64,000 nucleotides of DNA from Patescibacteria group bacterium (GTDB lineage Bacteria > Patescibacteriota > Patescibacteriia > JAQUQO01). A program made the position numbers and the translations under genes. Location of the stretch: positions 384,942 through 448,941 of the forward strand of contig JAQUQO010000001.1 in assembly GCA_028716045.1 (NCBI GenBank), written 5' to 3'. The notes below the pieces were generated by a model. The model did no database searches. It was not told the origin of the DNA and was given only the letters and a program-made list of their open reading frames with translations. The stretch's first letter is position 1. Each line of letters opens with the position of its first letter. Of the stretch, positions 664 through 63,143 are shown piece after piece.

Positions 664-752
664 TTGTCATTCTGAACGAGGTCAGCGAAGCTGACCGAAA
701 TGAAGAATCTGAATTTAGATTCTTCTCCCGAGTTCTCGGGGTCAGAATGACA
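664..752. repeat. Family-1 palindromic MITE-like element (outer inverted repeat TTGTCATTCTGA...TCAGAATGACA enclosing 3 internal hairpins)
   Basis: Outer inverted repeat ttgtcattctga/tcagaatgaca. Internal hairpins are gtcagcgaagctgac, gaatctgaatttagattc and cccgagttctcggg. The same architecture recurs at 6149-6310 and 29524-29595. Confidence 0.7.
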
Positions 753-1492
753 CTCCGCGCGGGGAGGCCCAAAAAATTCCTAAAATTAAAAGCCCTCGGA
801 TATAAATTTTCCGAGGGGCTTGATACATATTTTGCGGCCTTCTTTTGGCCGCTGGTTGTTGGGCAGTTTATGAACGGCGGTCTTACCCTGGACCCCGCGC
901 CGTTGTCGTCGGCTTATTCTCTAAAATTTGCGCTTTCGCGCATGCTCGGAGGTGCTCTCTTCATCTTTCTATCTCCTGCTTTTGGGGTTGTCGGTTAATA
1001 AACGCACACTATGTGCCGGATAAAACAAACAATCCAACCATTGTGGCATTCTTACCAATTTTGGTATTTTTACCAAATATATTGGCCGGGGTGTCAACCC
1101 GCTTTATTCTGAATGCGCTGACCAATCGATTTCTCCCGTTTTTGTTCGTATTGGTGACTTTGCCGTGTAGATGGTCGTATCCGTAAACTGGGCGATCACC
1201 TCACTCGGCGATTTTTTTTCGGCGATTTTTTCCACAAATTGGTTTCTTCCAACTTTCTGTCATTCTTTTGCTAAGTTAGCGACTACTGACATTTTACTGG
1301 CAGATTTATGCGCTGCTTAACAGGGGTGTCAACCCTACAAAGAATGCGGACCTCCTCTTACCTCCATTCTGGTTAAATCTTTACGCCAATATATAATTTT
1401 CAAACGTGGTTATATTATAACATAATGGCTAAAACCTGTCAAGAGTGTGGGGAAGGGAGATACTAATAACCGTCTAAAACCCAAGAAAAACA

Positions 1493-3874: not shown

Positions 3875-4974
3875 AGACCCGCGCTTGATTTTGATTTTCT
3901 AACCGCTAAAATCGCCAAAACCAACATCACTAAAACTAAAATTGCCAAAGCCCAAAGCTTGCTCCGGCTCTGCAAGAACAGGGCGCCGGCGCCGAAAGAA
4001 ACTGATAAAAAATATAAAAATAAAACCGCGCCGCGATGTGAGAACCCCAAATTTAGCAGACGAAAATGTAGATGCTTAGCATCTCCCCGAAACGGCGATT
4101 TTTTTTCCACAAAAATCCTTCTTAAAATCACCCACAGCACATCCAAAACCGGAATGCCGACGACAAGAAGCGTGGTGGCGACTTTACTGCCGGAAATAAT
4201 ACCAAGAGCGCCAAGCATAAAACCGCAAAATAGACTTCCGCCCTCGCCCAAAAATATTTTAGCGGGATGCCAATTAAAAATTAAAAAACCCGCGCAGACG
4301 GCGGCTAAAATCAAAGCCAACGCCGCCACCTCCGGCTGGTACCACCGAGTCAGCAAACTCAAACCGGCGATAATCAAAGCGCCAATAATGGTAATGCCGG
4401 AAACCAATCCGTCCAATCCGTCCAAAAATTTTGTGGTATACATCATCCCCATCAGCCATAAAAAAGTGAAAACATCAGCCAATAAAGTAAATTTATACGC
4501 TATTCCATTGTGCCAAAATAAAATCCATTCATAGGTAGTAAAATCCAAAAGTCCGCCAAAGGGATTATTGATATAATGTATGCCAATACCCGAAACAATC
4601 ACAATAATTACCGCGGCCATCGGAAAAATAATCTGAAACTTCGGCGCTAAATTATATTTGTCATCTAAAAAACCGCCAATCATTAAAACAAGCCCGCCAA
4701 AAAATAAACCGGCTAAATTTTTGACTACTAACTGCTTATCCAAAATCATTTCCGGGTTTATAAAATAAATCACCGCCAAAACAATAAAAAAAGACAAAAA
4801 AAGAGCCAGACCGCCAAAAAGCGGGGTCGGCTCCTGATGGATTTTCCTACCGCCGGTGGGCTGGTCAAGAACATTAAAACGCAAAGCCAGACGGCGGATA
4901 AAAAAAGTAAGAACAATACTTATGACAAAAGAAAAAACCGTTAACCACAACATAAGGAGCATTATTTTTCGCAA
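3871..4974 (-). CDS. Polyprenyl-phosphate sugar-1-phosphate transferase, MraY/WecA family (glycosyltransferase family 4)
   Basis: Multi-TM protein with the GFLDDKYNLAPKFQ motif typical of MraY/WecA. Its start overlaps the downstream gene stop by 4 bp. Confidence 0.65.
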   Translation of the reverse strand: MRKIMLLMLWLTVFSFVISIVLTFFIRRLALRFNVLDQPTGGRKIHQEPTPLFGGLALFLSFFIVLAVIYFINPEMILDKQLVVKNLAGLFFGGLVLMIGGFLDDKYNLAPKFQIIFPMAAVIIVIVSGIGIHYINNPFGGLLDFTTYEWILFWHNGIAYKFTLLADVFTFLWLMGMMYTTKFLDGLDGLVSGITIIGALIIAGLSLLTRWYQPEVAALALILAAVCAGFLIFNWHPAKIFLGEGGSLFCGFMLGALGIISGSKVATTLLVVGIPVLDVLWVILRRIFVEKKSPFRGDAKHLHFRLLNLGFSHRGAVLFLYFLSVSFGAGALFLQSRSKLWALAILVLVMLVLAILAVRKSKSSAGL

Positions 4975-6071
4975 GTTGGATTAAGAAAACCTGAACACTC
5001 GTATCCAGCCGGGCATTGATAGTCCTCGGCGCAAGAATCCCCGGGTGATAATTTAGAATAACATTTGTTTATTGTATATCCTAAAAGAGTGTCAAGATTG
5101 CACCACTGCCCGGTTCCGCAATCATTTTGGCTGGAACAGCCCTCCCCTTGTTTTCTGCAATTATACCCCGCCCCCTCCTGCCGGCAAGTAAACCCCGGCG
5201 CGCATTTTTGGGAATTATTGCATGGAGCGCCGTCCATGCCATTTGAGCAAAGCCCACTCTCGCAAATTTTGCTTTCGCACTCCGAAGCATTGGAACAATC
5301 ACTACCCGCCGACCGGCCAGTAGAACCCTCACAAGAACCTATCCCCTTTTTAGGGTTAGCTTCCTCGTCACATTTAAATCCTTTCTGACAGTCGGCGTCG
5401 GTTAGGCAGGAAGACCCCTTGTCCCCGCCGCTGCAAAGGCCAGTGCCTCCCCCGCCGGCATTTTCAATACATTTTTGTCCTCGGGGGCAAGAATCCGAAA
5501 TTTTAAGGTCACATGTTTGCTCCGCTTTGGACGGGCAAACTATTTCCGTTTCTCCTGACAAACATTCATTCACTCTCGCGACATAGTCATTTCTATCTCC
5601 GCTAGCATTAACACCGGAGACGGGTTTACAGCAAATAGTTTTGGCTTTTTCTACTTCTGTAATCGTTCTGATTTCCGGCACTTTCAATTTTGTCAGATTG
5701 GGATTCACTGTATTTAAAATAAACCATGAGCCAAATACTAAAAATAGTCCTATCAACGCGCTGGCTATGTATTCTTTGGCATTCTTCACTCTATCCGGAC
5801 TGCCGCCGGCCGTCAGCCAAATCACTCCGCCGACGACTATCATCACAACTGCCACGATGCCGACTATGGAAAGGGCGTAATTATAAATAACGTTGATGTA
5901 ATCGGCAATATCAATTGACGCAATCATCGTGTCTTCATCATAACTCATCCCGGGAATGGGCACGGAAATTTTAACCTGCGGTTTCTCCGCGGCCAAAACA
6001 AAACCCGTGAGCAAAATTTGAAGTGCGAAAATAATGACGATGATAGATAAAATTCTTTTAGAAAAAAGCAT
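4962..6071 (-). CDS. Membrane-anchored surface protein: VirB2/TrbC-pilin-like double-TM N-terminal core fused to a long Cys-rich (EGF/Dickkopf-like) extracellular domain
   Basis: N-terminal TM segment, then the second hydrophobic segment IVGIVAVVMIVVGGVIWLTAGGSPDRVKNAKEYIASALIGLFLVFGSWFILNTV typical of TrbC/VirB2 pilins. This is followed by roughly 230 aa containing more than 40 Cys in repeated CxxGxxC modules. Confidence 0.55.
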   Translation of the reverse strand: MLFSKRILSIIVIIFALQILLTGFVLAAEKPQVKISVPIPGMSYDEDTMIASIDIADYINVIYNYALSIVGIVAVVMIVVGGVIWLTAGGSPDRVKNAKEYIASALIGLFLVFGSWFILNTVNPNLTKLKVPEIRTITEVEKAKTICCKPVSGVNASGDRNDYVARVNECLSGETEIVCPSKAEQTCDLKISDSCPRGQKCIENAGGGGTGLCSGGDKGSSCLTDADCQKGFKCDEEANPKKGIGSCEGSTGRSAGSDCSNASECESKICESGLCSNGMDGAPCNNSQKCAPGFTCRQEGAGYNCRKQGEGCSSQNDCGTGQWCNLDTLLGYTINKCYSKLSPGDSCAEDYQCPAGYECSGFLNPTCEK

Positions 6072-6148: not shown

Positions 6149-6310
6149 TTGTCATTCCGAGCGGAACGAATGAGCGATAGCGAATGAGTGCAGTCGAGGA
6201 ATCCCTTATACGCGGTTAAACGGATTGAACAAAATTTTAGCTTCTCCGAAGTTTAAGCGATTTCCTTCGGCAAGCTCAGGAGAGGCCCTCCACTTCGGTC
6301 GGAATGACAA
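6149..6310. repeat. Family-1 palindromic MITE-like element, long variant
   Basis: Outer inverted repeat ttgtcattccgagcgg...ccacttcggtcggaatgacaa with an internal structured insert. Confidence 0.65.
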
Positions 6311-6390
6311 AATATAAACAATACTCACAATTCTTACACTTTATTTTAGCATATTTTAGGGAAAATAAAAAACCGCGTTGCGTTGGCAAT

Positions 6391-6573
6391 TTGTCTTTGC
6401 GAGGCGTCCCGAGAATTCGGGACGACGAAGCAATCTGATCCGAGTGGTTATTCTGAATAAAGCAAAATCTACGGTTGTCGTCCTCGGCCTGCTAAACGTG
6501 GTCAAAATGGCACTAATCTCGCACCAGATTACTTCGCTCATCCCGCCGTGGCGGGATTCGCTCGCAAAGACAA
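6391..6573. repeat. Family-2 mosaic palindromic element (outer inverted repeat TTGTCTTTGCGAGG...CTCGCAAAGACAA with shared internal hairpin modules)
   Basis: Internal modules are cgtcccgag-N-ctcgggacg, gaagcaatctga...cagattacttc and tcccgccgtggcggga. The same modules recur at 29609-29775, 32320-32414 and 33854-33919. Confidence 0.65.
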
Positions 6574-13565: not shown

Positions 13566-13604
13566 CTGTCAAGACCCGTCGGTCGCGATTGACGGGTCAA
13601 GTTC
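13566..13604. repeat. Palindromic operator/promoter element copy 2 (ctgtcaagacccgtcggtcgcgattgacgggtcaagttcc)
   Basis: Near-perfect palindrome. The minus-strand TTGACA lies 17 nt upstream of TAAATT, in front of the ankyrin gene. Confidence 0.7.
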
Positions 13605-19280: not shown

Positions 19281-21842
19281 TTATTCTCCCTCTCGCGTTT
19301 TTTTCTGTACCACCCTCGTCCTCTCCAAAACCTCCATCTCCACCACTTTGCGGCTGCGCCCATATTTGAGACGCGACAACTCTCTGATATTTTTTGCTAA
19401 TTCCGCGTCCGCCCGCGCAATCTCATCAAGCGAAATCGTCGCCATATTGAACGGCGGCGGATTGGCGTTATCAATCAAAAGCTTAGCGTAGGCGTTATAT
19501 TTAGGGATATTTAAAAAATCGCGAACGGAAAAAATCGGTGCGAACTCTTTGACCATATGTTCGGCGTCTTCCACACCGATACGGAAACAAACCTTAGTGC
19601 CGACATTGCCGAAAATGGCATCACGGATTCTCGTATCATTATTTTTGACCAACTGACTGATGTATTGATGGCCGATGGTCAGACAGAGGCGATATTTGCG
19701 CGCTTCGGAAAGAATAACATTAACACTTTCCGTGAGAAAATTTTGAAACTCGTCAATGTAGAGATAAAAATCCTTTCTCTCTTCTTCGGGTATGTCCGCC
19801 CTACCCAAAGACGCCATGAGAATTTTCCCGATGATAATCATGCCGAGCAGATTAGCGTTGATTTCTCCGATCTTTCCCTTAGCCAGATTGACCAAAATAA
19901 TTTTACGGGAATCCATGGCCTCGCGGAAATTAAAAGCGCTTTTCTGCTGGGCGATAATCAACCTTACGAGATCATTGGCGATGAAGGGCGTGAGCTTGGA
20001 AGTGATGTAAGGAACCATATTGGCCAGCGACGCTTCTCCACCAGCTTTCTGCGCTTCTTTCTCCCAAAAATCTTTCACCACCGGCGTGCGGCATTTGGAA
20101 AGTTTAAATTTTCTGAATTCTTCGTCAGCTAAAACTTTCGGCACTTCCAAAAGCGTGGAGCCGGACTCGGGGTCATCCATAATCAACATCAGGGCGTTGC
20201 GCATATATTGCTCAAACATCGGTCCGCCGGTAGCTTTAAGGTCGTACAACTTTTCAAAAATAGCTAAAAGCTCATTGATGACAAAAATTTTCTGGTCTTC
20301 CGAATAATATTCAAGGATATTCATGGCCAGCGGCCGCTCAAAATCCGACGGGTCAAAAATAATCACGTCTTCCGCGCGTTCTCTGGGGATACGCTCTAAA
20401 ATATGTTCAATGGCATCGCCGTGCGGGTCAATAAAACAAACGCCCTCACCGTTTTTAATATCCCGCACCGCCAGACCTTCCTGAAACCACGACTTGCCCG
20501 TACCCGTCATACCAATAACATAAAGATGCCGGCGGCGATCCTCTCTTTTTATTCTTACTTCTGTTTTCACCCCGCGATAAGTATTGACTCCTAAAAGCAG
20601 ACCCTCGCGAGGAATATTATTGGGCGCCGGCGCGCTGCGAGAAAGAAGCCAGGCGATGCGCGGCGTTTCCATGGTCGGCAGAGGAAAATGGTAAATACTC
20701 GCCATCTCCTCGGTATTTAAAATAATTTTTTTATTTTCATTAAAATGGCGATAAATGAATTCTTTGATAATTTTTTTCAAACTAGATGGCGCGCTCTGCC
20801 GAAAACCATTGCCGTATTGATAAATATTATACTGATTAAAAGAATTGACGATATTGTCCAAAATTATTTTGCCGGCCTCGCGGCTCTTAGCCGAAGCCAT
20901 TACGCGGATATTCACTTCCATCCCCGCTTTACTGCTCTTCTCTTCCAGACCCTTGACCATTTCCTCTTCCAAAGGAGAAAGGCGATAAGGTTCGTTCTGT
21001 TTTGGCGGAAGACCGGGTTTAGAAGCCGCCCCGCTGGAAGCCGCCGCTTTGAATGTTTTGCCCAACTCGCCCCAAGCGCTTTTCTTTTCCACGGCCGAGA
21101 GTTTTTTACCCTGCTGCATGGCCGTGGCAATATGCACGCCTTCCTTACGCCACTCTACCCCCGCCGGGCGAAGAACAATCTGAATCGCCGCGCCGCTTTC
21201 TTCGTCTATTTTCGACAAAGAGTTGGTTAAAGTATTAAGCGGGTCGGATTCAAGTTTGCGATAAGTTTTAATGGGAAAAGCATTTTTACGCGTCAAAGTA
21301 AGATAGGTGCCAAGAATGACGCCTTGCGGAGAAAAAATATTATAATCCTCAACTTCTTCTATCACCGAGTCGGGATACTGCGCCTGTATCTGCTGTTCCA
21401 AATAATCGCGCAAATAAAGCGGGCAGGCGACGTAAAAATAAATAAGTCCGCGCCAAACGACAATCTCCAGGGCAATTTGGTCTTGCCGGCCGAAAAACCA
21501 GGTTTTCCAACCTTTTTCCCTGCGCAACCCGCCGATGCCACTGAAAAACGTCTCGGCCACGGCAATCATCTCCTGAATTTTCTGCAATCCCGCCTGTTCT
21601 TTTTTTTCTTCCCCGCCTAAATCTTTGGGCATTCTTACCGCCAGCACCACTTTTTTAAATCCATAAATTGTCTGACCTTTCTGCCGCAAAAAATTTCTAA
21701 TCCAAAAGATGATAAAAAATAAGACAAAAAAACCAAGAAGCGCCAAAAGAAGAAAATCCAAAACAGACACCGCTTCTCCGGTTTCTAGGGTGAGTTCGCT
21801 ACCGCCCAAATTAATAGTCGTTTGCCAAAAACTTAAAAGCAT
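19281..21842 (-). CDS. VirD4/TraG/TraD-family type IV secretion coupling ATPase-like protein (membrane-anchored)
   Basis: N-terminal TMs. Walker A HLYVIGMTGTGKSWF. FIDPHGD...IIFDPSDFERPLAMNIL matches coupling-protein motifs. Walker B YLYIDEFQNF. Confidence 0.7.
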   Translation of the reverse strand: MLLSFWQTTINLGGSELTLETGEAVSVLDFLLLALLGFFVLFFIIFWIRNFLRQKGQTIYGFKKVVLAVRMPKDLGGEEKKEQAGLQKIQEMIAVAETFFSGIGGLRREKGWKTWFFGRQDQIALEIVVWRGLIYFYVACPLYLRDYLEQQIQAQYPDSVIEEVEDYNIFSPQGVILGTYLTLTRKNAFPIKTYRKLESDPLNTLTNSLSKIDEESGAAIQIVLRPAGVEWRKEGVHIATAMQQGKKLSAVEKKSAWGELGKTFKAAASSGAASKPGLPPKQNEPYRLSPLEEEMVKGLEEKSSKAGMEVNIRVMASAKSREAGKIILDNIVNSFNQYNIYQYGNGFRQSAPSSLKKIIKEFIYRHFNENKKIILNTEEMASIYHFPLPTMETPRIAWLLSRSAPAPNNIPREGLLLGVNTYRGVKTEVRIKREDRRRHLYVIGMTGTGKSWFQEGLAVRDIKNGEGVCFIDPHGDAIEHILERIPRERAEDVIIFDPSDFERPLAMNILEYYSEDQKIFVINELLAIFEKLYDLKATGGPMFEQYMRNALMLIMDDPESGSTLLEVPKVLADEEFRKFKLSKCRTPVVKDFWEKEAQKAGGEASLANMVPYITSKLTPFIANDLVRLIIAQQKSAFNFREAMDSRKIILVNLAKGKIGEINANLLGMIIIGKILMASLGRADIPEEERKDFYLYIDEFQNFLTESVNVILSEARKYRLCLTIGHQYISQLVKNNDTRIRDAIFGNVGTKVCFRIGVEDAEHMVKEFAPIFSVRDFLNIPKYNAYAKLLIDNANPPPFNMATISLDEIARADAELAKNIRELSRLKYGRSRKVVEMEVLERTRVVQKKTREGE

Positions 21843-24837: not shown

Positions 24838-24868
24838 GGCTTATCCCGTCAGTCGCGACTGACGGTTC
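24838..24868. repeat. Palindromic operator element copy 3 (core cccgtcagtcgcgactgacgg)
   Basis: Perfect 21-bp core palindrome lying 32 bp upstream of the kinase start codon. Confidence 0.65.
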
Positions 24869-28283: not shown

Positions 28284-29375
28284 TTATTCTTTCCCCCACT
28301 CCTCCAGCATCTTTTTTTGTTTCCGGGTGAGATTTTTCGGCACTTCCACTTTCACGGTTACGAGCTGGTCCCCGCGCCCCGAACCGCGAAGTTTCGGCAC
28401 CCCGCGTCCCTTGATTCTGAAAATTGTTCCTGACTGCGTGCCGGCCGGAATTTTTAAATTAACCGAACCGTCAATGGTGCTGACTTCAACCTTATCACCT
28501 AACGCCGCCTGCGGGAAAGAAATAGTGATAGTATTTAAAATATCAAAGGCGTCACGGGAAAATTCCGGATGCGGCTTAACGTTAAAATTAACATAAAGAT
28601 TGCCGGCTAAACCATCGCGGCCAACCGCTTCGCCCTTGCCCGAGTATTTGACAGTGTCGCCGCTATTTATCCCCGCCGGAATTTTGACTTTTATCTTCTC
28701 GTTCCCCTTTTTAATCCCCGCTCCGCGGCATTCCGAGCAGAGCTTCTCCGGCTTATTACCCGCTCCGCGGCATTCCGGACAAACAGAAGATGTTTCCATG
28801 GCGCCTAAAAAAGTCCGCTGGACTTTGCGAACTCTGCCCGCTCCACCGCAAGAGACGCAAGAAATTATTTTACTCCCCGGCTCCGCGCCACTGCCGCCGC
28901 AACGCTCACAAATTATATTTTTATATAACTCTAATTCTTTCTCACCACCGAACACCGCTTCGCGAAAATCAATCTGCAAATCAACTTCTATATCGCGTCC
29001 TTTGGCGCGGGTGGCCGTTTTGGTTCTCTGCCCGCCGAACGAACCGCCAAAAATATCTCCAAGTCCGCCAAACAAATCACCCAAATCATCCATGTTAATG
29101 TTAAACCCGCCGCTTTGGAATCCGCCAAACGGATTTCCTCCGCCAAATCCGCCGGCTCCCATATTTTCAAAGGTGGTGCCGAATTGGTCATACTGTTTTC
29201 TTTTTTCCAAATTGCCCAAAACCTGATAGGCCTCGTTTATTTCTTTGAACTTCGCCTCATCGCCGCCCTCTTTATCTGGATGGTATTTATGCGCCAGTTG
29301 CCTAAAAGCGCGCTTGACCTCTTCAGCCGAAGCGCTTTTTTCTATTCCTAAAATTTTATAATAATCTTTGGACAT
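28284..29375 (-). CDS. dnaJ: Chaperone DnaJ
   Basis: J-domain YYKILGI...HKYHPDK, G/F region, and four CxxCxGxG zinc-finger repeats. Confidence 0.95.
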   Translation of the reverse strand: MSKDYYKILGIEKSASAEEVKRAFRQLAHKYHPDKEGGDEAKFKEINEAYQVLGNLEKRKQYDQFGTTFENMGAGGFGGGNPFGGFQSGGFNINMDDLGDLFGGLGDIFGGSFGGQRTKTATRAKGRDIEVDLQIDFREAVFGGEKELELYKNIICERCGGSGAEPGSKIISCVSCGGAGRVRKVQRTFLGAMETSSVCPECRGAGNKPEKLCSECRGAGIKKGNEKIKVKIPAGINSGDTVKYSGKGEAVGRDGLAGNLYVNFNVKPHPEFSRDAFDILNTITISFPQAALGDKVEVSTIDGSVNLKIPAGTQSGTIFRIKGRGVPKLRGSGRGDQLVTVKVEVPKNLTRKQKKMLEEWGKE

Positions 29376-29385
29376 AACTTGAAAC

Positions 29386-29448
29386 TCACAACTTGTAACT
29401 TAAAACTTGAAACATATAACCTAAAATTTGAAACTTAATCCCTTCCTT
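29386..29448. repeat. AACTTGAAA-type short tandem/imperfect repeats
   Basis: aacttgaaactcacaacttgtaacttaaaacttgaaacatataacctaaaatttgaaactt. Similar ATAAC/AACTT motifs occur at 18549-18632 and 32416-32446. Confidence 0.5.
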
Positions 29449-29523
29449 AAACAAGCCTGCCTACGGTTCGACTGAGCTCACCAAAGTCCGGCAGGCAGGG
29501 AGGGGTTGGGGTAGAAAGAAACA

Positions 29524-29595
29524 TTGTCATCCTGAGCGTAGCGAAGGATCTCTGTCTAGATTCTTCGCCCCGAGAACTCGGGATCAGAATGACAA
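29524..29595. repeat. Family-1 palindromic MITE-like element (short copy)
   Basis: ttgtcatcctga...gaatc-tctgtcta-gattc...cccgagaactcggg...tcagaatgacaa. Confidence 0.7.
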
Positions 29596-29608
29596 TTGAC
29601 CTTTTTTA

Positions 29609-29775
29609 CTGTCTTTGCGAGGAGTCCCGCCGTGGCGGGACGACGCCTGCCTGCCGGCAGGCAGGAAGCAATCTCTAATACAGCGCCCTTGCCCAAAGCT
29701 ACGTATTAGAGATTGCTTCCCCCTCGACGACTCGACTGAGCTCGCCGAAGTCAAGCTCGGGGTCGCAATGACAGC
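29609..29775. repeat. Family-2 mosaic palindromic element filling the dnaK-dnaJ spacer
   Basis: Modules are tgtctttgcgagg, cgtcccgcc/ggcgggacg, gcctgcc/ggcaggc, gaagcaatctctaatac/gtattagagattgcttc and gggtcgcaatgacagc. Confidence 0.65.
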
Positions 29776-31668
<1,893 letters not shown>

Positions 31669-31750: not shown

Positions 31751-32221
31751 TTATTTTTTCTTTTTGGCCACGGCTTTTTTAGCGGGAGCCGATTTTTTGG
31801 CAATTGTAATTTTTTTGACTTCTTTGGGCGCTCCAACCTTGGGAATGCTGATTTTTAAAAGCCCGTTCTCCGATACTGCCTTGGCTTTATCAGCATCAAC
31901 ATGGGCCGGCAGGGCCACGGTGCGGTAAAAATTTCCATAACGCACCTCTTTACGGTAAAAATTTTTCTCCTCTACCTCGGATTTGTGCTCGCTCTTCCCC
32001 TTAATCGTTAACACATCGTTTTCAATGGTAATTTCAACGTCTTTGGGGTCAACTCCCACCAACGGAGTTTCCACCATCAGATTTCCGTCTTTTTCATAAA
32101 CATCAATGGCCGGAATAAATCCTTTGACTTTAGCCGGGACCAAAGAAAAAGCATCATCTCCAAAAGCCCCTTCAAAATCCTCAAAGGGCTCAAAAAATGG
32201 TTTCCATGGAATGAGTGACAT
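31751..32221 (-). CDS. Hsp20/alpha-crystallin family small heat-shock protein
   Basis: ACD fold region ...PAIDVYEKDGNLMVETPLVGVDPKDVEITIENDVLTIKG. Confidence 0.85.
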   Translation of the reverse strand: MSLIPWKPFFEPFEDFEGAFGDDAFSLVPAKVKGFIPAIDVYEKDGNLMVETPLVGVDPKDVEITIENDVLTIKGKSEHKSEVEEKNFYRKEVRYGNFYRTVALPAHVDADKAKAVSENGLLKISIPKVGAPKEVKKITIAKKSAPAKKAVAKKKK

Positions 32222-32319: not shown

Positions 32320-32414
32320 CTGTCATTGCGATCCCGCCTTGGCGGGAGAAGCAATCTCTAATACGTTTAGATTGCTTCGTCGTCCCGAGCGTTCGGGACT
32401 CCTCGCAAAGACAG
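32320..32414. repeat. Family-2 mosaic palindromic element (inverted orientation) in the hsp20-grpE spacer
   Basis: gtcattgcgatccc, gccttggcggga, gaagcaatctctaatacgtttagattgcttc, gtcgtcccgagcgttcgggac and cctcgcaaagacag. Confidence 0.65.
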
Positions 32415-32446
32415 AAAAAAGTTATAAACTATAAGTTATAAAATCC

Positions 32447-32959
32447 CTACTCTGCCACGACCACTTTTGCCGGAATCAGCGCTTTATCGCCCATCTTATA
32501 TCCACTGCCTACTTCTTCCAAAATAATATCCGGCTCTTTTCCTTCTTCTTTACGCTTGCCAACGGCTTCGTGCCATTCGGGATTAAACTTTTCTCCAACT
32601 GTTTTTATCTCCTCCAACCCCAGCCCCTTCAAAAAATCATCAATCTGTTTTTTTGTCTGAAAAATTCCCGCCACCCAACCGACGTCTTTTTGCTCTTCGG
32701 GAATATGCGTTATGGCCTTTTTAAAACTGTCAATAATAGGCAAAAGCCCGAACAATATATTAGCTGTCACAAATTTAATGAGCTCTTTCTGTTTCTCCTC
32801 GGCTTCTCTTTTCAAATTTATATAATCGGCTTTGGCTCTTTTCCAACCGTCCAAATTTTCTTCCGCCCGTTTTTCCAATTTAACAACTTTCTCCCGCAAT
32901 TCATCAAGCTCGCTTTTGGCGTTATCCTGCTTGGCTCCTTTTTTATCTTCGTCGGCCAT
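32447..32959 (-). CDS. grpE: Nucleotide exchange factor GrpE
   Basis: Coiled-coil N-terminus plus the C-terminal beta-domain. It sits in the hrcA-grpE-dnaK order. Confidence 0.9.
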   Translation of the reverse strand: MADEDKKGAKQDNAKSELDELREKVVKLEKRAEENLDGWKRAKADYINLKREAEEKQKELIKFVTANILFGLLPIIDSFKKAITHIPEEQKDVGWVAGIFQTKKQIDDFLKGLGLEEIKTVGEKFNPEWHEAVGKRKEEGKEPDIILEEVGSGYKMGDKALIPAKVVVAE

Positions 32960-33677: not shown

Positions 33678-33704
33678 TTAGCACTCTCACTCTATGAGTG
33701 CTAA
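33678..33704. promoter_or_regulatory. CIRCE operator (TTAGCACTC-N9-GAGTGCTAA), HrcA binding site upstream of hrcA
   Basis: Exact match to the CIRCE consensus inverted repeat, 11 bp upstream of the hrcA start. Confidence 0.9.
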
Positions 33705-33853
33705 TTTCATTATACCCCCCGCCCAAAAGCTTGTCAAGAATCAGTTTTTCTCCCACCACCCCACCCCTCGACAAGCTCGGGGCGAAGTACCCCTCCTCTG
33801 GCAGTAGGGGAAATTTCTTGGTTATTAATGTTTAAAATTGGCTATTTCAGATA

Positions 33854-33919
33854 TTGTCTTTGCGAGTGAACTGCCAGCTAGCCCCATCAGCTGGCGGGGA
33901 GCGAAGCAATCTGAACCCC
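33854..33919. repeat. Family-2 mosaic element, partial copy
   Basis: ttgtctttgcgag...gcgaagcaatctgaacccc. Confidence 0.5.
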
Positions 33920-34027: not shown

Positions 34028-34681
34028 CTATTTACAGCCATTTTCCTTAAGCTTTTTTTGAAGCGTAACTGCTTCGTTAAGGTAGCCAACGGCTTTGTCT
34101 GTTTGCCTGGGCGTCAGCAGGGCAGTTTCAAGATTGATTTCCGCTGCCTCCGCTGCTATTTTGTCCGCTTCGCAACTGGCAATCTTACCCTTCGTTTTTA
34201 TAGTGTCAAGGGCATAATACATGGAAAATGTAATTATAGCCAAGATAACAACTAGCGCTGTTTTTCTCTTCTCGCTTTTTCTTTCTTTTTCCGCCGCTTC
34301 GCTTGCTTTTTTGTATCCTTCTTCCCCCTCTTCTTCATTAAATATCGATGCCGGGGCGGAAGTACTTTCCACCAGAGGTTCTTTCCCTGGAAGCGGTGGC
34401 GGAGGATTTTGACTTACCAGCGGCGGGCGGTCGGGCTCGGTTTTTGGCGCCGTTGCCGCTTCACTGCTGTTACCATAAAGATTATTGACTTCTTCATCCG
34501 GAATATTGCTAAATGGGTTGCCCTCCCCCGGAGTTTTTGGCTTCAGGGCTGTATCAGGTGAAATTTCCTCCGCTGCTTTTTTTCGACAATTTTCGCAAGA
34601 ACCATCAGCTGATAGAGTGTTGTCACAAATAGAACATACCAAAATCTCCACGGGTTTTTTATCTTTATCTACATCTGCCAT
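34028..34681 (-). CDS. Zinc-ribbon membrane protein (N-terminal CxxC...CxxC, Pro-rich linker, single TM)
   Basis: CSICDNTLSADGSCENCRK, then a low-complexity linker, then a TM segment. Confidence 0.45.
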   Translation of the reverse strand: MADVDKDKKPVEILVCSICDNTLSADGSCENCRKKAAEEISPDTALKPKTPGEGNPFSNIPDEEVNNLYGNSSEAATAPKTEPDRPPLVSQNPPPPLPGKEPLVESTSAPASIFNEEEGEEGYKKASEAAEKERKSEKRKTALVVILAIITFSMYYALDTIKTKGKIASCEADKIAAEAAEINLETALLTPRQTDKAVGYLNEAVTLQKKLKENGCK

Positions 34682-49100: not shown

Positions 49101-49128
49101 GTAGGCGAGAATTCGAATTCTCGCCTAC
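49101..49128. repeat. 28-bp perfect palindrome GTAGGCGAGAATTCGAATTCTCGCCTAC (copy 1)
   Basis: Exact repeat of the copy at 49588-49615. Contains two EcoRI sites. Confidence 0.8.
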
Positions 49129-49137
49129 GCACAAGGG

Positions 49138-49177
49138 CCTGACCCGTCGGTCGCGACTGACGGGTCTTGACAAATTT
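49138..49177. repeat. Palindromic operator/promoter element copy 4 (inverted orientation)
   Basis: cctgacccgtcggtcgcgactgacgggtcttgacaaattt. Its TTGACA (49167-49172) forms the -35 box, 17 nt upstream of TATGGT. Confidence 0.7.
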
Positions 49178-49281: not shown

Positions 49282-49452
49282 ATGGGGAAAAACAAAAAAA
49301 GAAAGCCTCAAAAAAGAGAAGGGTGGAAACCTCCTAAAAATTACTGGGAAAATTTAAAAAAAGAAGTGCTGAGAGATCGGCACGAGTTAGAAGAAGCGGA
49401 TAAACAGGCCGCAAAAGCAATTAGTGAGGCATGGAATCTACTAACCAAGTAA
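49282..49452 (+). CDS. Small basic protein (56 aa, MGKNKKRKPQKREGWKPPKNYWENLKKEVLRDRHELEEADKQAAKAISEAWNLLTK), not in the ORF track
   Basis: RBS GAAAGGAAAA precedes the ATG. A promoter from element copy 4 lies upstream. An intrinsic terminator (agcaccgacataaatcggtgct plus T-run) lies downstream at 49463-49500. Confidence 0.55.
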   Translation: MGKNKKRKPQKREGWKPPKNYWENLKKEVLRDRHELEEADKQAAKAISEAWNLLTK

Positions 49453-49587
49453 TCCAATCGCAAAAGCACCGACATAAATCGGTGCTTCTTTTATTATTTT
49501 TCGTAGGCGAGGTCGTCCTGGTTATTCAACGAGATAAACGCGACCTCGTCTATAATTTCGGAGAAAAGGCATGTCTTAAGTTTCATC

Positions 49588-49615
49588 GTAGGCGAGAATT
49601 CGAATTCTCGCCTAC
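49588..49615. repeat. 28-bp perfect palindrome GTAGGCGAGAATTCGAATTCTCGCCTAC (copy 2)
   Basis: Identical to copy 1. It lies between the converging small ORF and rarA. Confidence 0.8.
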
Positions 49616-52207: not shown

Positions 52208-52360
52208 TAAAAATAACCGCCCCGAAACTCGGGACGGTTATTTATTTCTAAACGTTTGACACCTTTAAATAAAAATGATATCGTGTCATATTGTCCTAAT
52301 TTTTGGACAATTTTAATAATCTTTGGTCTTTTAAAAACTATAAATAAAGGAGAAACTGAA

Positions 52361-53560
52361 ATGAGAAAGTTAACTGGTTTTGAAAAGGAACGACGCCAAT
52401 GGTTAGTGAAAGAACTTCGTTATTTAGGGCTAACCACTCCGGAAATCGCCAAGGCCATCAATTTTAGCGAATCCCTGGTTCACGCCATTCTTAAAGAATG
52501 TAAAGTTAATAAAAATAAGCAAAAAAGAACCGAAACCTTCGGTTTGGCGTTTCGGCGTTATGCTGAACTAGAAACGACAGAACTGAAAACAAGGCAAGAG
52601 GAAGAACTTTGTTGTATTTTGAGAAAATGGCTGGGGATTGAGAGAAAACGCATTGTCGATTTTTTTGAAGGCGTTGTTGAAACTTTGCAAGAGCTTACCA
52701 TTCTTTTCTACCCGCCCGGATGTGAAGCGTACATCAATCTTCTCCGCGTGGTGTTCGGCGAAAAAATTTACCAAGGCATATTCTCTTCGGGAATTATGAA
52801 TGATGAAATGCTTCTTAAGTATTTGCAGGAAGAAATAGACGATGAAATTGCTAAACGGTGGGAAAAATATTTGAAAGAAGTCGCCGATGGCGCTATCCCG
52901 CCTCCCCATTCTCTCGCAGGAGCAAAAGCGCCCCTAATGAGAGAATATCTTGCTGAATATCGTTCTCAAATTATGCCCACCCTAACTGACACTTCTCTCA
53001 AATACATTGACGCCATTATCTCGAGCACTCTGACTGAACGCGAAGCGCGAATTATTCGCCTGCGGTTTGGCTTAAAAGATGGTGGCGTTCCTCACACCTT
53101 GAAAGAAATTGGACAAAAGCTTGGTGTTACTCTAGAGCGTATCCGCCAGATTGAGGGCAAAGCACTCCGAAAACTCCGCCATCCGTCAAAGGGGCTTAAA
53201 TATCTTGGACGACCGCTTCACAGCACTCTTGAAAAAGAGATTAAAGAAAAAACAAGGGAAATAGAAGCGGCGCTAAGGATCGCTGAAATGACAACCTTAT
53301 CAAAAAAATACCCCCTGTTACCAATGCTTCTAAGACCAACAGAGGAGATAAAGTTCTCAATCCGCGCCTCTAACTGTTTAAGAAATGCTGACATTAAATA
53401 TATCGGCGAACTTGTCCAAAAAACGGAAAAAGAATTGCTCAAGACCAGATACTTCGGGCGTAAATCACTCCGTGAGATAGAAGAAGTTCTAGCGGACATG
53501 GGGCTTTCTCTCGGTATGAATCTTGACGATGAACTGAAAGAAGCAATAAAACAACTCTGA
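52361..53560 (+). CDS. Chimeric transcription protein: N-terminal domain of unknown function, then sigma-70 region-4 HTH, then RNA polymerase alpha-subunit C-terminal domain (alpha-CTD)
   Basis: [15 protein letters not shown]...[31 protein letters not shown] aligns with RpoD region 4.2 at about 60% identity. [53 protein letters not shown] aligns with E. coli RpoA alpha-CTD at about 60% identity. No sigma region 2 or alpha N-terminal domain is present. Start chosen at an ATG after AAAGGAGAAA. Confidence 0.75.
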
Positions 53561-56307: not shown

Positions 56308-56374
56308 TCTGTCAAGACCCGTCAGTCGCGACTGACGGGTCAAGACACGTCGATTGCGACCGACATGTCAAGCG
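56308..56374. repeat. Palindromic operator/promoter element copy 5, with a degenerate second tandem copy
   Basis: ctgtcaagacccgtcagtcgcgactgacgggtcaagac followed by acgtcgattgcgaccgacatgtcaagcg. The minus-strand TTGACA lies 17 nt upstream of TAGTAT, in front of the 55561-56241 gene. Confidence 0.75.
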
Positions 56375-62983: not shown

Positions 62984-63060
62984 CAGCTCCGGGACTTGGA
63001 TTCGAACCAAGATAAGCAGCTTCCTCGCCAAAGGCGAGTGCGCCTCGGGCGCAAAAGGCT
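62984..63060 (-). pseudogene. 3' half of a tRNA-Gln(TTG) (from anticodon-loop A37 to the acceptor end) preceded by a roughly 38-nt structured module
   Basis: Minus strand: AGCCTTTTGCGCCCGAGGCGCACTCGCCTTTGGCGAGG then AAGCTGCTTATCTTGGTTCGAATCCAAGTCCCGGAGCTG. The last 39 nt are identical to the 3' half of the intact tRNA at 63073-63143. Confidence 0.7.
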
Positions 63061-63072
63061 TTGTCAGCACAG

Positions 63073-63143
63073 CTCCGGGACTTGGATTCGAACCAAGATA
63101 AGCAGCTTCAAAGGCTGCTGTCCTACCATTAGACGATCCCGGA
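63073..63143 (-). tRNA. tRNA-Gln (anticodon TTG), CCA not encoded; 11-nt leader and trailer are perfectly complementary
   Basis: TCCGGGA...GCAGC-CTTTGAA-GCTGC...CTTGG-TTCGAAT-CCAAG-TCCCGGA-G. Flanks are TGTCAGCACAGC (5') and CTGTGCTGACA (3'). Confidence 0.85.

Follow-up and report, generated by a model that had tools for sequence, protein, structure and literature searches.

Why are the spacers of a bacterial heat-shock operon filled with nested palindromes, and do these palindromes serve the operon or lodge in it as passengers? The question is raised by 64,000 nucleotides from a Patescibacteria group bacterium (assembly GCA_028716045.1, contig JAQUQO010000001.1, positions 384,942 to 448,941; hereafter the window, i.e., this whole stretch), in which an earlier note, made from the letters alone, had recognized an hrcA-grpE-hsp20-dnaK-dnaJ operon and two families of modular palindromic repeats. 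Pfam agrees with this gene order, on the minus strand. Regarding the repeats, we propose that they are doublets of repetitive extragenic palindromes (REPs) belonging to the CGTC superfamily, a reading that we consider likely. They would be genomic passengers, dispersed as hairpins of single-stranded DNA (ssDNA), and any effect on the operon would be secondary.

One half-unit architecture with a covarying stem

All seven copies listed in the earlier note are present (Table 1), at frequencies above chance. With at most one mismatch, the terminus TTGTCATYCYGA of the first family has six matches, forming the inverted pairs 664/753, 6149/6310 and 29524/29595, compared with 0.9 on average in shuffled sequences, none of 100 shuffles reaching six. 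The terminus TGTCTTTGCGAGG of the second family, with at most two mismatches, is found at 6392, 6572 (minus strand), 29610, 32413 (minus strand) and 33855, that is five times for 1.5 expected, and its A-variant TGTCATTGCGA forms the other ends at 29773 (minus strand) and 32321. The outer inverted repeats of the elements measure 11-13 bp. Altogether, the window contains 13 half-units arranged as six inverted doublets, with their tags outward, and one solo unit. They are located in five separate intergenic regions of the 64 kb and never inside genes; at two loci a pair of elements lies side by side, long arrays are absent, and a generic scan for tagged hairpins retrieved no further copies within the window.

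When the termini are read in a common orientation, the 13 half-units share one architecture, irrespective of the family to which they had been assigned. Over about 30-65 nt, each is composed of a TGTC tag (13/13), a 5-mer, GA, an insert, (G/C)(A/G)A, the reverse complement of the 5-mer and a 3-nt tail (CTN in 11 units, CCC in one and CGC in one). The 5-mer is ATTGC, ATTCT, ATCCT, ATTCC or TTTGC, and the insert, of 6-44 nt, nearly always consists of one or two GC-rich hairpins. Folded in isolation, as DNA or as RNA, the half-units are predicted to display an unpaired tag, a 5-bp stem, an internal loop and the inner hairpin.

The 5-bp stem covaries: 90.8% of the cells are paired and compensatory double changes (GC/CG, CG/UA and UA/CG) affect three of the five pairs, with stem position 2 being U-A in all 13 units and position 1 A-U in 8 of them. 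None of 500 shuffles reached the observed score or percentage of pairing, and slid registers collapse; in the alignment used, the last unpaired column was altered in two rows so that identical core rows stay separate, the pairs being untouched. In the doublet 29524-29595, the left half-unit has the stem ATCCT/AGGAT with a minimal inner hairpin, GCGTAGC, and the right one the stem ATTCT/AGAAT with the hairpin CCCGAGTTCTCGGG. Because this compensatory change occurs within a half-unit and leaves the outer termini mismatched, the half-unit, not the doublet, is the evolving module. The repeats are dispersed through the window, as first described, but the two "families" are not separate and represent variants of one superfamily with a covarying 5-bp stem.

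The shuffling of internal modules, also part of the first description, was reproduced by a short-word BLAST of each copy against the window, which retrieved 45 nt with 89% identity (6392-6436 vs 32413-32369) and two perfect matches of 21 nt (29609-29629 vs 32414-32394) and 19 nt (29701-29719 vs 32348-32366). The hairpin TCCCGCCGTGGCGGGA is present at 29625 and at 6541, and TCCCGCCACGGCGGGA, in the element 6391-6573, is the loop-flipped form of the hairpin at 29625. Likewise, TCCCGCC-NN-GGCGGGA occurs three times with the loops GT, TT and AC (AC being the flip of GT), and CCCGAG-NN-CTCGGG is found in both orientations, a hairpin of this type, devoid of the frame, being the dnaB terminator at 316-329. 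The inner hairpins are thus interchangeable between copies. The element 29609-29775, of frame TGTC(T/A)TTGCGA...GAAGCAATCTC, has the nested hairpins TCCCGCCGTGGCGGGA and CCTGCCTGCCGGCAGGCAGG and a central 18-bp stem, GGAAGCAATCTCTAATAC/GTATTAGAGATTGCTTCC. An untagged hairpin module at 29455-29499 encloses TCGACTGAGCTCACCAAAGTC, which recurs at 29732-29752 with 90% identity. In the element 6149-6310, the left half contains three tandem GAGCGnAnCGAAT mini-hairpins and an AT-rich spacer separates the halves, and the element 664-753 has three hairpins, one of which is GGTCAGC-GAA-GCTGACC. A deposited 83-amino-acid open reading frame (ORF; 747-998, plus strand) starts inside the right arm of the latter repeat and has no Pfam match; the repeat has probably given rise to a false gene call here.

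Folding each copy, a check suggested along with the first description, gave very stable structures for the complete copies (z from -4.6 to -8.4, whichever strand is taken and whether it is folded as RNA or as DNA), whereas the fold of the solo half-unit 33854-33919 is not significant on its own (z of -0.4 and -1.6). For the whole 400-nt spacer between dnaK and dnaJ, the sense strand folds with -166.5 kcal/mol (z = -8.1 vs shuffled sequences).

Relation to known repeat classes and distribution among bacteria and phages

To which class of repeats do these half-units belong? The superfamily of CGTC-tagged REPs has been defined by a tag CGTC (TGTC in many repeats), complementary A-T residues at stem positions 1 and 2, a stem of 8-9 bp, a loop of 4-5 nt and an unpaired 3-nt tail with the consensus CCA (Di Nocera, De Gregorio & Rocco 2013, BMC Genomics 14:522; PMC3733652). 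Head-to-head (HH) dimers, with the tags outside, predominate, the dimer spacers often have complementary ends, and the class "apparently lack[s] a dedicated transposase", its mechanism of spread being a stated open question (PMC3733652). The window units likewise have an unpaired (C/T)GTC tag, a stem beginning with A-T and T-A, a mostly HH arrangement with complementary ends in the spacers, an intergenic location and no associated transposase; their 3-nt tail is mostly CTN. Moreover, the ATTGC-GA...GAA-GCAAT core of the second family in the window is identical in an HH dimer, CGTCATTGCGAGCGAAGCGAAGCAA(T/C)CCAGGG...CCCTGGGTTGCTTCGCTTCGCTCGCAATGACG, of plasmid pSA1 of Novosphingobium resinovorum, and sphingomonads are among the listed classical hosts of CGTC REPs.

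The published host range covers five phyla, Patescibacteria not being among them (PMC3733652), unlike the host of the window, which has a Patescibacteria genome of about 0.8 Mb. In the literature, we found no description of REPs in Patescibacteria, and searches with sequence strings returned nothing relevant. We regard the repeats as members of a known and very widespread class, for which Patescibacteria are a new host lineage.

Scans of public collections, whose counts are lower bounds, extend this distribution. The exact pattern TGTCATTGCGA-N(4-34)-GAAGCAATCT was found in at least 120 stretches of IMG/VR contigs, many of the contigs listed being those of tailed phages that encode capsid, portal and terminase proteins. 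The rarer T-variant was found in at least 120 stretches of species-representative genomes from more than 15 phyla, including, among the matches listed, Chloroflexota, Bacteroidota (with a cultured Flavobacterium), Cloacimonadota, Patescibacteria, Desulfobacterota, Legionella, Nitrospirota, Planctomycetota, Firmicutes, Omnitrophota and Atribacterota. The core is also present on plasmids of Novosphingobium, Methylosinus and several cyanobacteria. Among the loci listed, 514 units of the ATTGC type have T (83%) or C (11%) before GTC (94% together), GA after the stem in 93% and GAA before the 3' arm in 74% of cases, with the tails CTC (56%), CCC (9%) and CCA (9%). In the same loci, 282 units are solo, 74 arrangements are HH, 56 are head-to-tail (tandem) and 28 are tail-to-tail (tags inward); the solo units show no orientation bias with respect to gene direction (63 vs 55, p = 0.52). 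The commonest inner hairpin there is GCGAAGC, and C(GNA)G accounts for 159 of 265 triloops, GNRA and UNCG tetraloops being rare.

Clustering of the ORFs from 240 unit-bearing loci yielded phage capsid, portal and terminase proteins and a small helix-turn-helix (HTH) protein as recurrent products, and no transposase. Related tailed-phage contigs (L014, L007, L052, L017 and about 35 other IMG/VR loci) are dense in TGTC-tagged units, with at least 5 units in 6.6 kb in L014, and encode an SPP1-like portal, an HK97-type capsid and a large terminase. In 5 of 10 loci, the small HTH protein of these contigs has units on either side.

Could the units be targets of recombination or integration? In Neisseria, CGTC-1 REPs are the dRS3 repeats of the Neisseria intergenic mosaic elements (NIMEs), and the Rickettsia palindromic elements RPE-4 and RPE-6 are also members of the class (PMC3733652); dRS3 repeats serve as integration sites for filamentous prophages and have been proposed to be recombinase sites (PMC1797815). 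By extension, a site-specific recombinase of phage or IS110 type would act on the window units, the mosaics arising from recombination with incoming DNA. The unit at 6150 has dRS3-like ATTCC...GGAAT arms (dRS3 being ATTCCC-N8-GGGAAT), GC-rich tagged hairpins bracket variable, shuffled modules in NIMEs as in the window, and units are abundant in phage contigs. However, NIMEs, in which dRS3 flank RS units, form long arrays by surface-antigen genes and are prophage integration sites, whereas in the window the doublets stand singly or in pairs in housekeeping spacers, and no recombinase or prophage adjoins any copy. Such a process would account for the mosaicism and not for the origin of the units, and we find this alternative very unlikely.

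The first description had also likened the repeats to miniature inverted-repeat transposable elements (MITEs) and bacterial interspersed mosaic elements (BIMEs). MITEs derive from DDE transposons by deletion and are recognized by terminal inverted repeats and target-site duplications; many DDE elements have 5'-TG...CA-3' termini. The copies would then be internally deleted insertion sequences (ISs) of the DDE type with TGTC...GACA terminal inverted repeats, mobilized by a transposase encoded elsewhere in the genome, which fits their 11-13-bp outer inverted repeats, 5'-TG...CA-3' termini, small size and intergenic location. Bacterial MITEs such as Correia, RUP and the Rickettsia RPEs are similarly small, structured, intergenic and multi-copy, and their co-transcription can alter the fate of mRNA. 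Correia-type MITEs nevertheless have long terminal inverted repeats, a TA target duplication and a transposon origin, while the window holds neither duplication nor parent element. No consistent direct repeat flanks the six doublets (CCCAAT/CTCCGC, ATTTAT/AAATAT, GCAATT/ATATGA, AACAT/ATTGA, TTAC/GCTT and AAGC/GAAA; 0/6 with a target-site duplication), the supposed terminal repeat belongs, as one half, to a local hairpin that covaries, half-units standing alone or in tandem are frequent elsewhere, and no transposase is encoded among the window genes. With, in addition, a 12-nt core found in more than 15 phyla, unlike IS-specific terminal repeats, we give this account hardly any credence.

The likeness to BIMEs is, by contrast with the one to MITEs, upheld by the REP-type hairpin doublets and their tetranucleotide tag. 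As in the REPINs and REP-BIMEs of Pseudomonas and Escherichia coli, two inverted REP hairpins with the tag at their foot are separated by a short spacer, adjacent elements form mosaics and a stabilizing action at the 3' side of mRNA is possible. These systems, however, have a GTAG tag, whereas that of the window is TGTC, and they are associated with a REP-associated tyrosine transposase (RAYT), encoded in the same genome between copies of its cognate REPs, for which the window has no gene and the class no known counterpart.

Several observations weigh against our assignment of the window repeats to CGTC-type passengers. Their stem has 5 bp instead of the published 8-9 bp, GA/GAA-flanked nested hairpins of 6-44 nt replace a 4-5-nt loop, and the tail is CTN instead of CCA; in five units, of the TTTGC variant, T replaces A at the first stem position and creates a T-T mismatch. 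Regarding mobility, no transposase domain (including Y1_Tnp, PF01797), and thus no mobilizing enzyme, was found in the window genes or in 17.6 kb of flanking DNA, and these flanks, of which 1.4 kb is non-coding, contain no units. Relatives close enough for a comparison of insertion sites were not found: the nearest DnaJ proteins are 73%, 69%, 64% and 62% identical and lie among other local genes, relatives from JGI metagenomes reach at most 60% identity, and Logan contigs assembled from two runs on the same population are 100% identical. Nearest-neighbour energies do not separate DNA from RNA folding. Finally, 7 of the 13 half-units cluster at the heat-shock operon, and in related Patescibacteria units are about twice as dense in the dnaK-dnaJ spacer as in the rest of the non-coding DNA, which leaves room for selection, or for local hopping, at this place. 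Since the differences from the consensus amount to a short stem, nested inserts and a CTN tail, we file the window units within the CGTC/TGTC class as new members. Related Patescibacteria carry both the composite ATTGC type and simple TGTC hairpins with 8-9-bp stems, and the two forms hence grade into each other.

How would passengers of this kind disperse? By analogy with the GTAG-REP/RAYT and IS200/IS605 systems, the half-units most likely spread as ssDNA hairpins whose 5' tag would be recognized by an enzyme acting in trans. Mini-hairpins of the d(GCGNAGC) type are exceptionally stable as DNA. The frequent GCGAAGC and C(GNA)G triloops, the scarcity of RNA-type tetraloops and the lack of orientation bias and of target-site duplications are hints of hairpins acting at the DNA level. 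The copies of the window would be non-coding and non-autonomous, and would have accumulated in the few intergenic spacers of this genome that tolerate them, exchanging and nesting hairpin modules by recombination or insertion, with some spread that appears local. A more speculative idea, which we hold to be doubtful, is that the frame (T/C)GTC-ATTGC-GA...GAA-GCAAT-CTC, invariant while its hairpins are exchanged, is spread or kept by a conserved housekeeping activity on ssDNA (replication, repair or recombination) instead of a dedicated transposase, or else by an unrecognized mobilizing enzyme.

The heat-shock operon as a host of the repeats

What do the repeats mean for the operon? A single promoter, a perfect sigma-70 match located upstream of hrcA, is followed on its 3' side by a canonical CIRCE operator, TTAGCACTC-N9-GAGTGCTAA, at 33704-33678. 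The four internal spacers measure 9 nt (hrcA-grpE), 225 nt (grpE-hsp20), 85 nt (hsp20-dnaK) and 400 nt (dnaK-dnaJ). It had been stated that three of them are occupied by repeats; in fact only two are, grpE-hsp20 and dnaK-dnaJ, because the copy 33854-33919 lies upstream of the hrcA promoter and CIRCE, after the terminator of the preceding gene (34028-34681). The dnaK-dnaJ spacer does contain both types of doublet and a tandem motif, as described; the latter, AACTTGA(AA) at 29376-29436, is real but weak (period 7, 8.7 copies, 66% matches). With the sole promoter in front of hrcA and the sense strand of the dnaK-dnaJ spacer devoid of promoter-like sites, the doublets of both spacers are probably co-transcribed with the operon.

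Table 1. Repeat elements of the window and components of the heat-shock operon
Feature	Position	Strand	Remarks
Doublet, family 1	664..753	.	Downstream of dnaB and dnaB terminator
Doublet, family 1, ATTCC/GGAAT stems	6149..6310	.	Stems resemble Neisseria dRS3
Doublet, family 2	6391..6573	.	80 nt from the 6149-6310 element
dnaJ	28284..29375	-	Pfam
AT-rich degenerate heptad tandem	29376..29436	-	AACTTGA x 8.7 on + strand; directly 5' of dnaJ start codon
Untagged hairpin module	29455..29499	.	CCTGCCTACGG...CCGGCAGGCAGG, encloses TCGACTGAGCTCACCAAAGTC; absent from the earlier list
Doublet, family 1	29524..29595	.	dnaK-dnaJ spacer
Doublet, family 2, tags outward	29609..29775	.	Half-units begin at 29610 (+) and 29773 (-)
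dnaK	29776..31665	-	Pfam; stop codon 29776-29778
hsp20	31751..32221	-	Pfam
Doublet, family 2	32320..32414	.	grpE-hsp20 spacer; far end 99 nt before hsp20 ATG
grpE	32447..32959	-	Pfam
hrcA, short form, 232 aa	32969..33667	-	Pfam
hrcA promoter and CIRCE	33678..33737	-	TTGACA 33737-33732, 17-nt spacer, TATAAT 33714-33709
Solo half-unit	33854..33919	+	TGTCTTTGCGA...GAAGCAATCTG; outside operon transcript

Are they, then, selected cis-regulatory RNAs (stabilizer, processing site, attenuator or thermosensor) by which the DnaK:DnaJ and GrpE:Hsp20 ratios are adjusted, with repetitiveness as a secondary trait? The sense-strand folds are very stable, the tags start 2 nt past the dnaK stop codon (29609-29775) and 33 nt past that of grpE (32320-32414), three of the five occupied intergenic regions of the window are at this operon, and precedents exist: transcript stability in Bacillus subtilis is shaped by a stem-loop lying between dnaK and dnaJ, and in E. 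coli malEFG, REPs stabilize the upstream mRNA. The density of units in relatives goes in the same direction, with 1.2 per kb in the dnaK-dnaJ spacer compared with 0.56 in other non-coding DNA and 0.05 in coding DNA. However, units also lie at unrelated loci (664 and 6149-6573), another one precedes the promoter (33854), the folds of the two strands are equally good, and the solo units found elsewhere have no orientation bias.

The order hrcA-grpE-(hsp20)-dnaK-dnaJ is kept in 52 related loci of Patescibacteria, with a dnaK-dnaJ interval of 0 to 2673 bp, and tagged units are found in 7 of 45 distinct dnaK-dnaJ spacers (about 1 by chance), with different, unrelated stems, the 38 others having none. 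The structures of the window are hence lineage-specific occupants and not a conserved regulatory RNA. Together with the occurrence of such units at loci unrelated to the operon, in phages and across many phyla, this shows that the elements are not an operon-specific device, and we judge selected cis-regulation to be improbable.

With no U-tract after them on the sense strand, the dnaK-dnaJ elements are rejected as intrinsic terminators; the grpE-hsp20 element, which is followed on the sense strand by CUUUGUUU, is a possible one. An RNA thermometer (ROSE or fourU) or another cis-regulator known to Rfam was rejected: Rfam gave no match at the gathering score or E-value threshold in the window, the best weak ones being chance matches to miRNA models, and the hsp20 Shine-Dalgarno sequence (GAGGAG) is about 90 nt from the grpE-hsp20 element and not sequestered. 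A hammerhead or other small ribozyme was likewise set aside, the CUGANGA/GAAA core being absent and Rfam without match, as were outward-facing promoters at the TGACA ends, which have no -10 box at the right spacing on the gene strand.

Within our reading of the doublets as passengers, a secondary effect on the operon is nonetheless plausible, by analogy with the precedents mentioned above. Co-transcribed doublets would fold into very stable branched structures shortly after the stop codons of grpE and dnaK, and would protect the upstream mRNA against 3' exonucleases or provide sites of pausing or processing, lowering dnaJ relative to dnaK. DnaK output would thus be favoured over that of DnaJ.

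Other features accompany this operon in the window and in relatives. No good Shine-Dalgarno sequence precedes dnaJ. AT-rich degenerate tandems with a period of about 7 (AACTTGA, AGTTATAA, TTCGTAA and GATTTGG) are found beside start or stop codons in the heat-shock operon spacers of many Patescibacteria, at 29376-29436 and 32415-32446 in the window and in the spacers of the related loci L257, L265, L274, L278, L316 and L326. In about 40% of the related loci (e.g., L243, L258, L279 and L293), a DUF3467 protein of about 95 amino acids is encoded between dnaK and dnaJ, and in L326 (7101-7950) the interval encodes a protein with an NYN/YacP nuclease domain besides DUF3467. The interval of the window has neither gene and carries the repeats instead.

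Further observations in the window and significance of the repeats

Two other palindromes are distinct from the TGTC units. A near-perfect palindrome of about 26 nt, GACCCGTCRGTCGCGAYTGACGGGTC, occurs at 13571-13597, 24841-24866, 49140-49166, 56314-56340 and 56342-56368, and in several copies abuts the TTGACA -35 box of a plausible promoter (49166-49171, with TATGGT 17 nt further on; 13563 and 56306 on the minus strand); it may serve as an operator, as a site for an activator or as a cassette of terminator and promoter. A perfect 28-nt palindrome with a GTAG tag, GTAGGCGAGAATTCGAATTCTCGCCTAC, is present at 49101-49128 and 49588-49615, with a diverged copy near 49503, and brackets a small lysine-rich ORF (about 49283-49452, plus strand), which comes with a promoter-like site and a terminator of its own; Rfam has no match in this 600-nt intergenic region.

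Among the genes, a 434-amino-acid protein (52256-53560, plus strand) displays an unusual fusion of Sigma-70 region 4 (residues 258-309) with the C-terminal domain of the RNA polymerase alpha subunit (residues 357-413). A 40-nt segment of the tRNA-Gln(TTG) gene (63072-63143, minus strand), 63070-63109, is duplicated with 100% identity at 62984-63023, 86 nt away, which may be a trace left by the integration of an element into this tRNA gene. The minus strand also encodes a VirD4/TraG-like coupling protein (19281-21842; DUF8128/DUF87/TraG-D_C) and a protein with a type IV secretion system pilin domain (4962-6071), both kinds of genes being typical of Patescibacteria.

What appeared to be a device of the heat-shock operon is thus explained away as generic REP doublets in tolerant spacers, which may secondarily uncouple dnaK from dnaJ. 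From a practical viewpoint, such units create spurious ORFs and break short-read assemblies. The CGTC/TGTC-tagged REPs are extended to Patescibacteria and to the genomes of tailed phages, with one 12-nt frame common to many phyla. With its size of about 0.8 Mb, a genome carrying such units offers a convenient setting in which to seek the activity that spreads this class, for which no transposase is known. If their frame is indeed kept by a housekeeping activity on ssDNA or by an unrecognized mobilizing enzyme, the minimal genome of this member of the candidate phyla radiation would provide a very short list of candidates for the missing "RAYT" of CGTC-type REPs.

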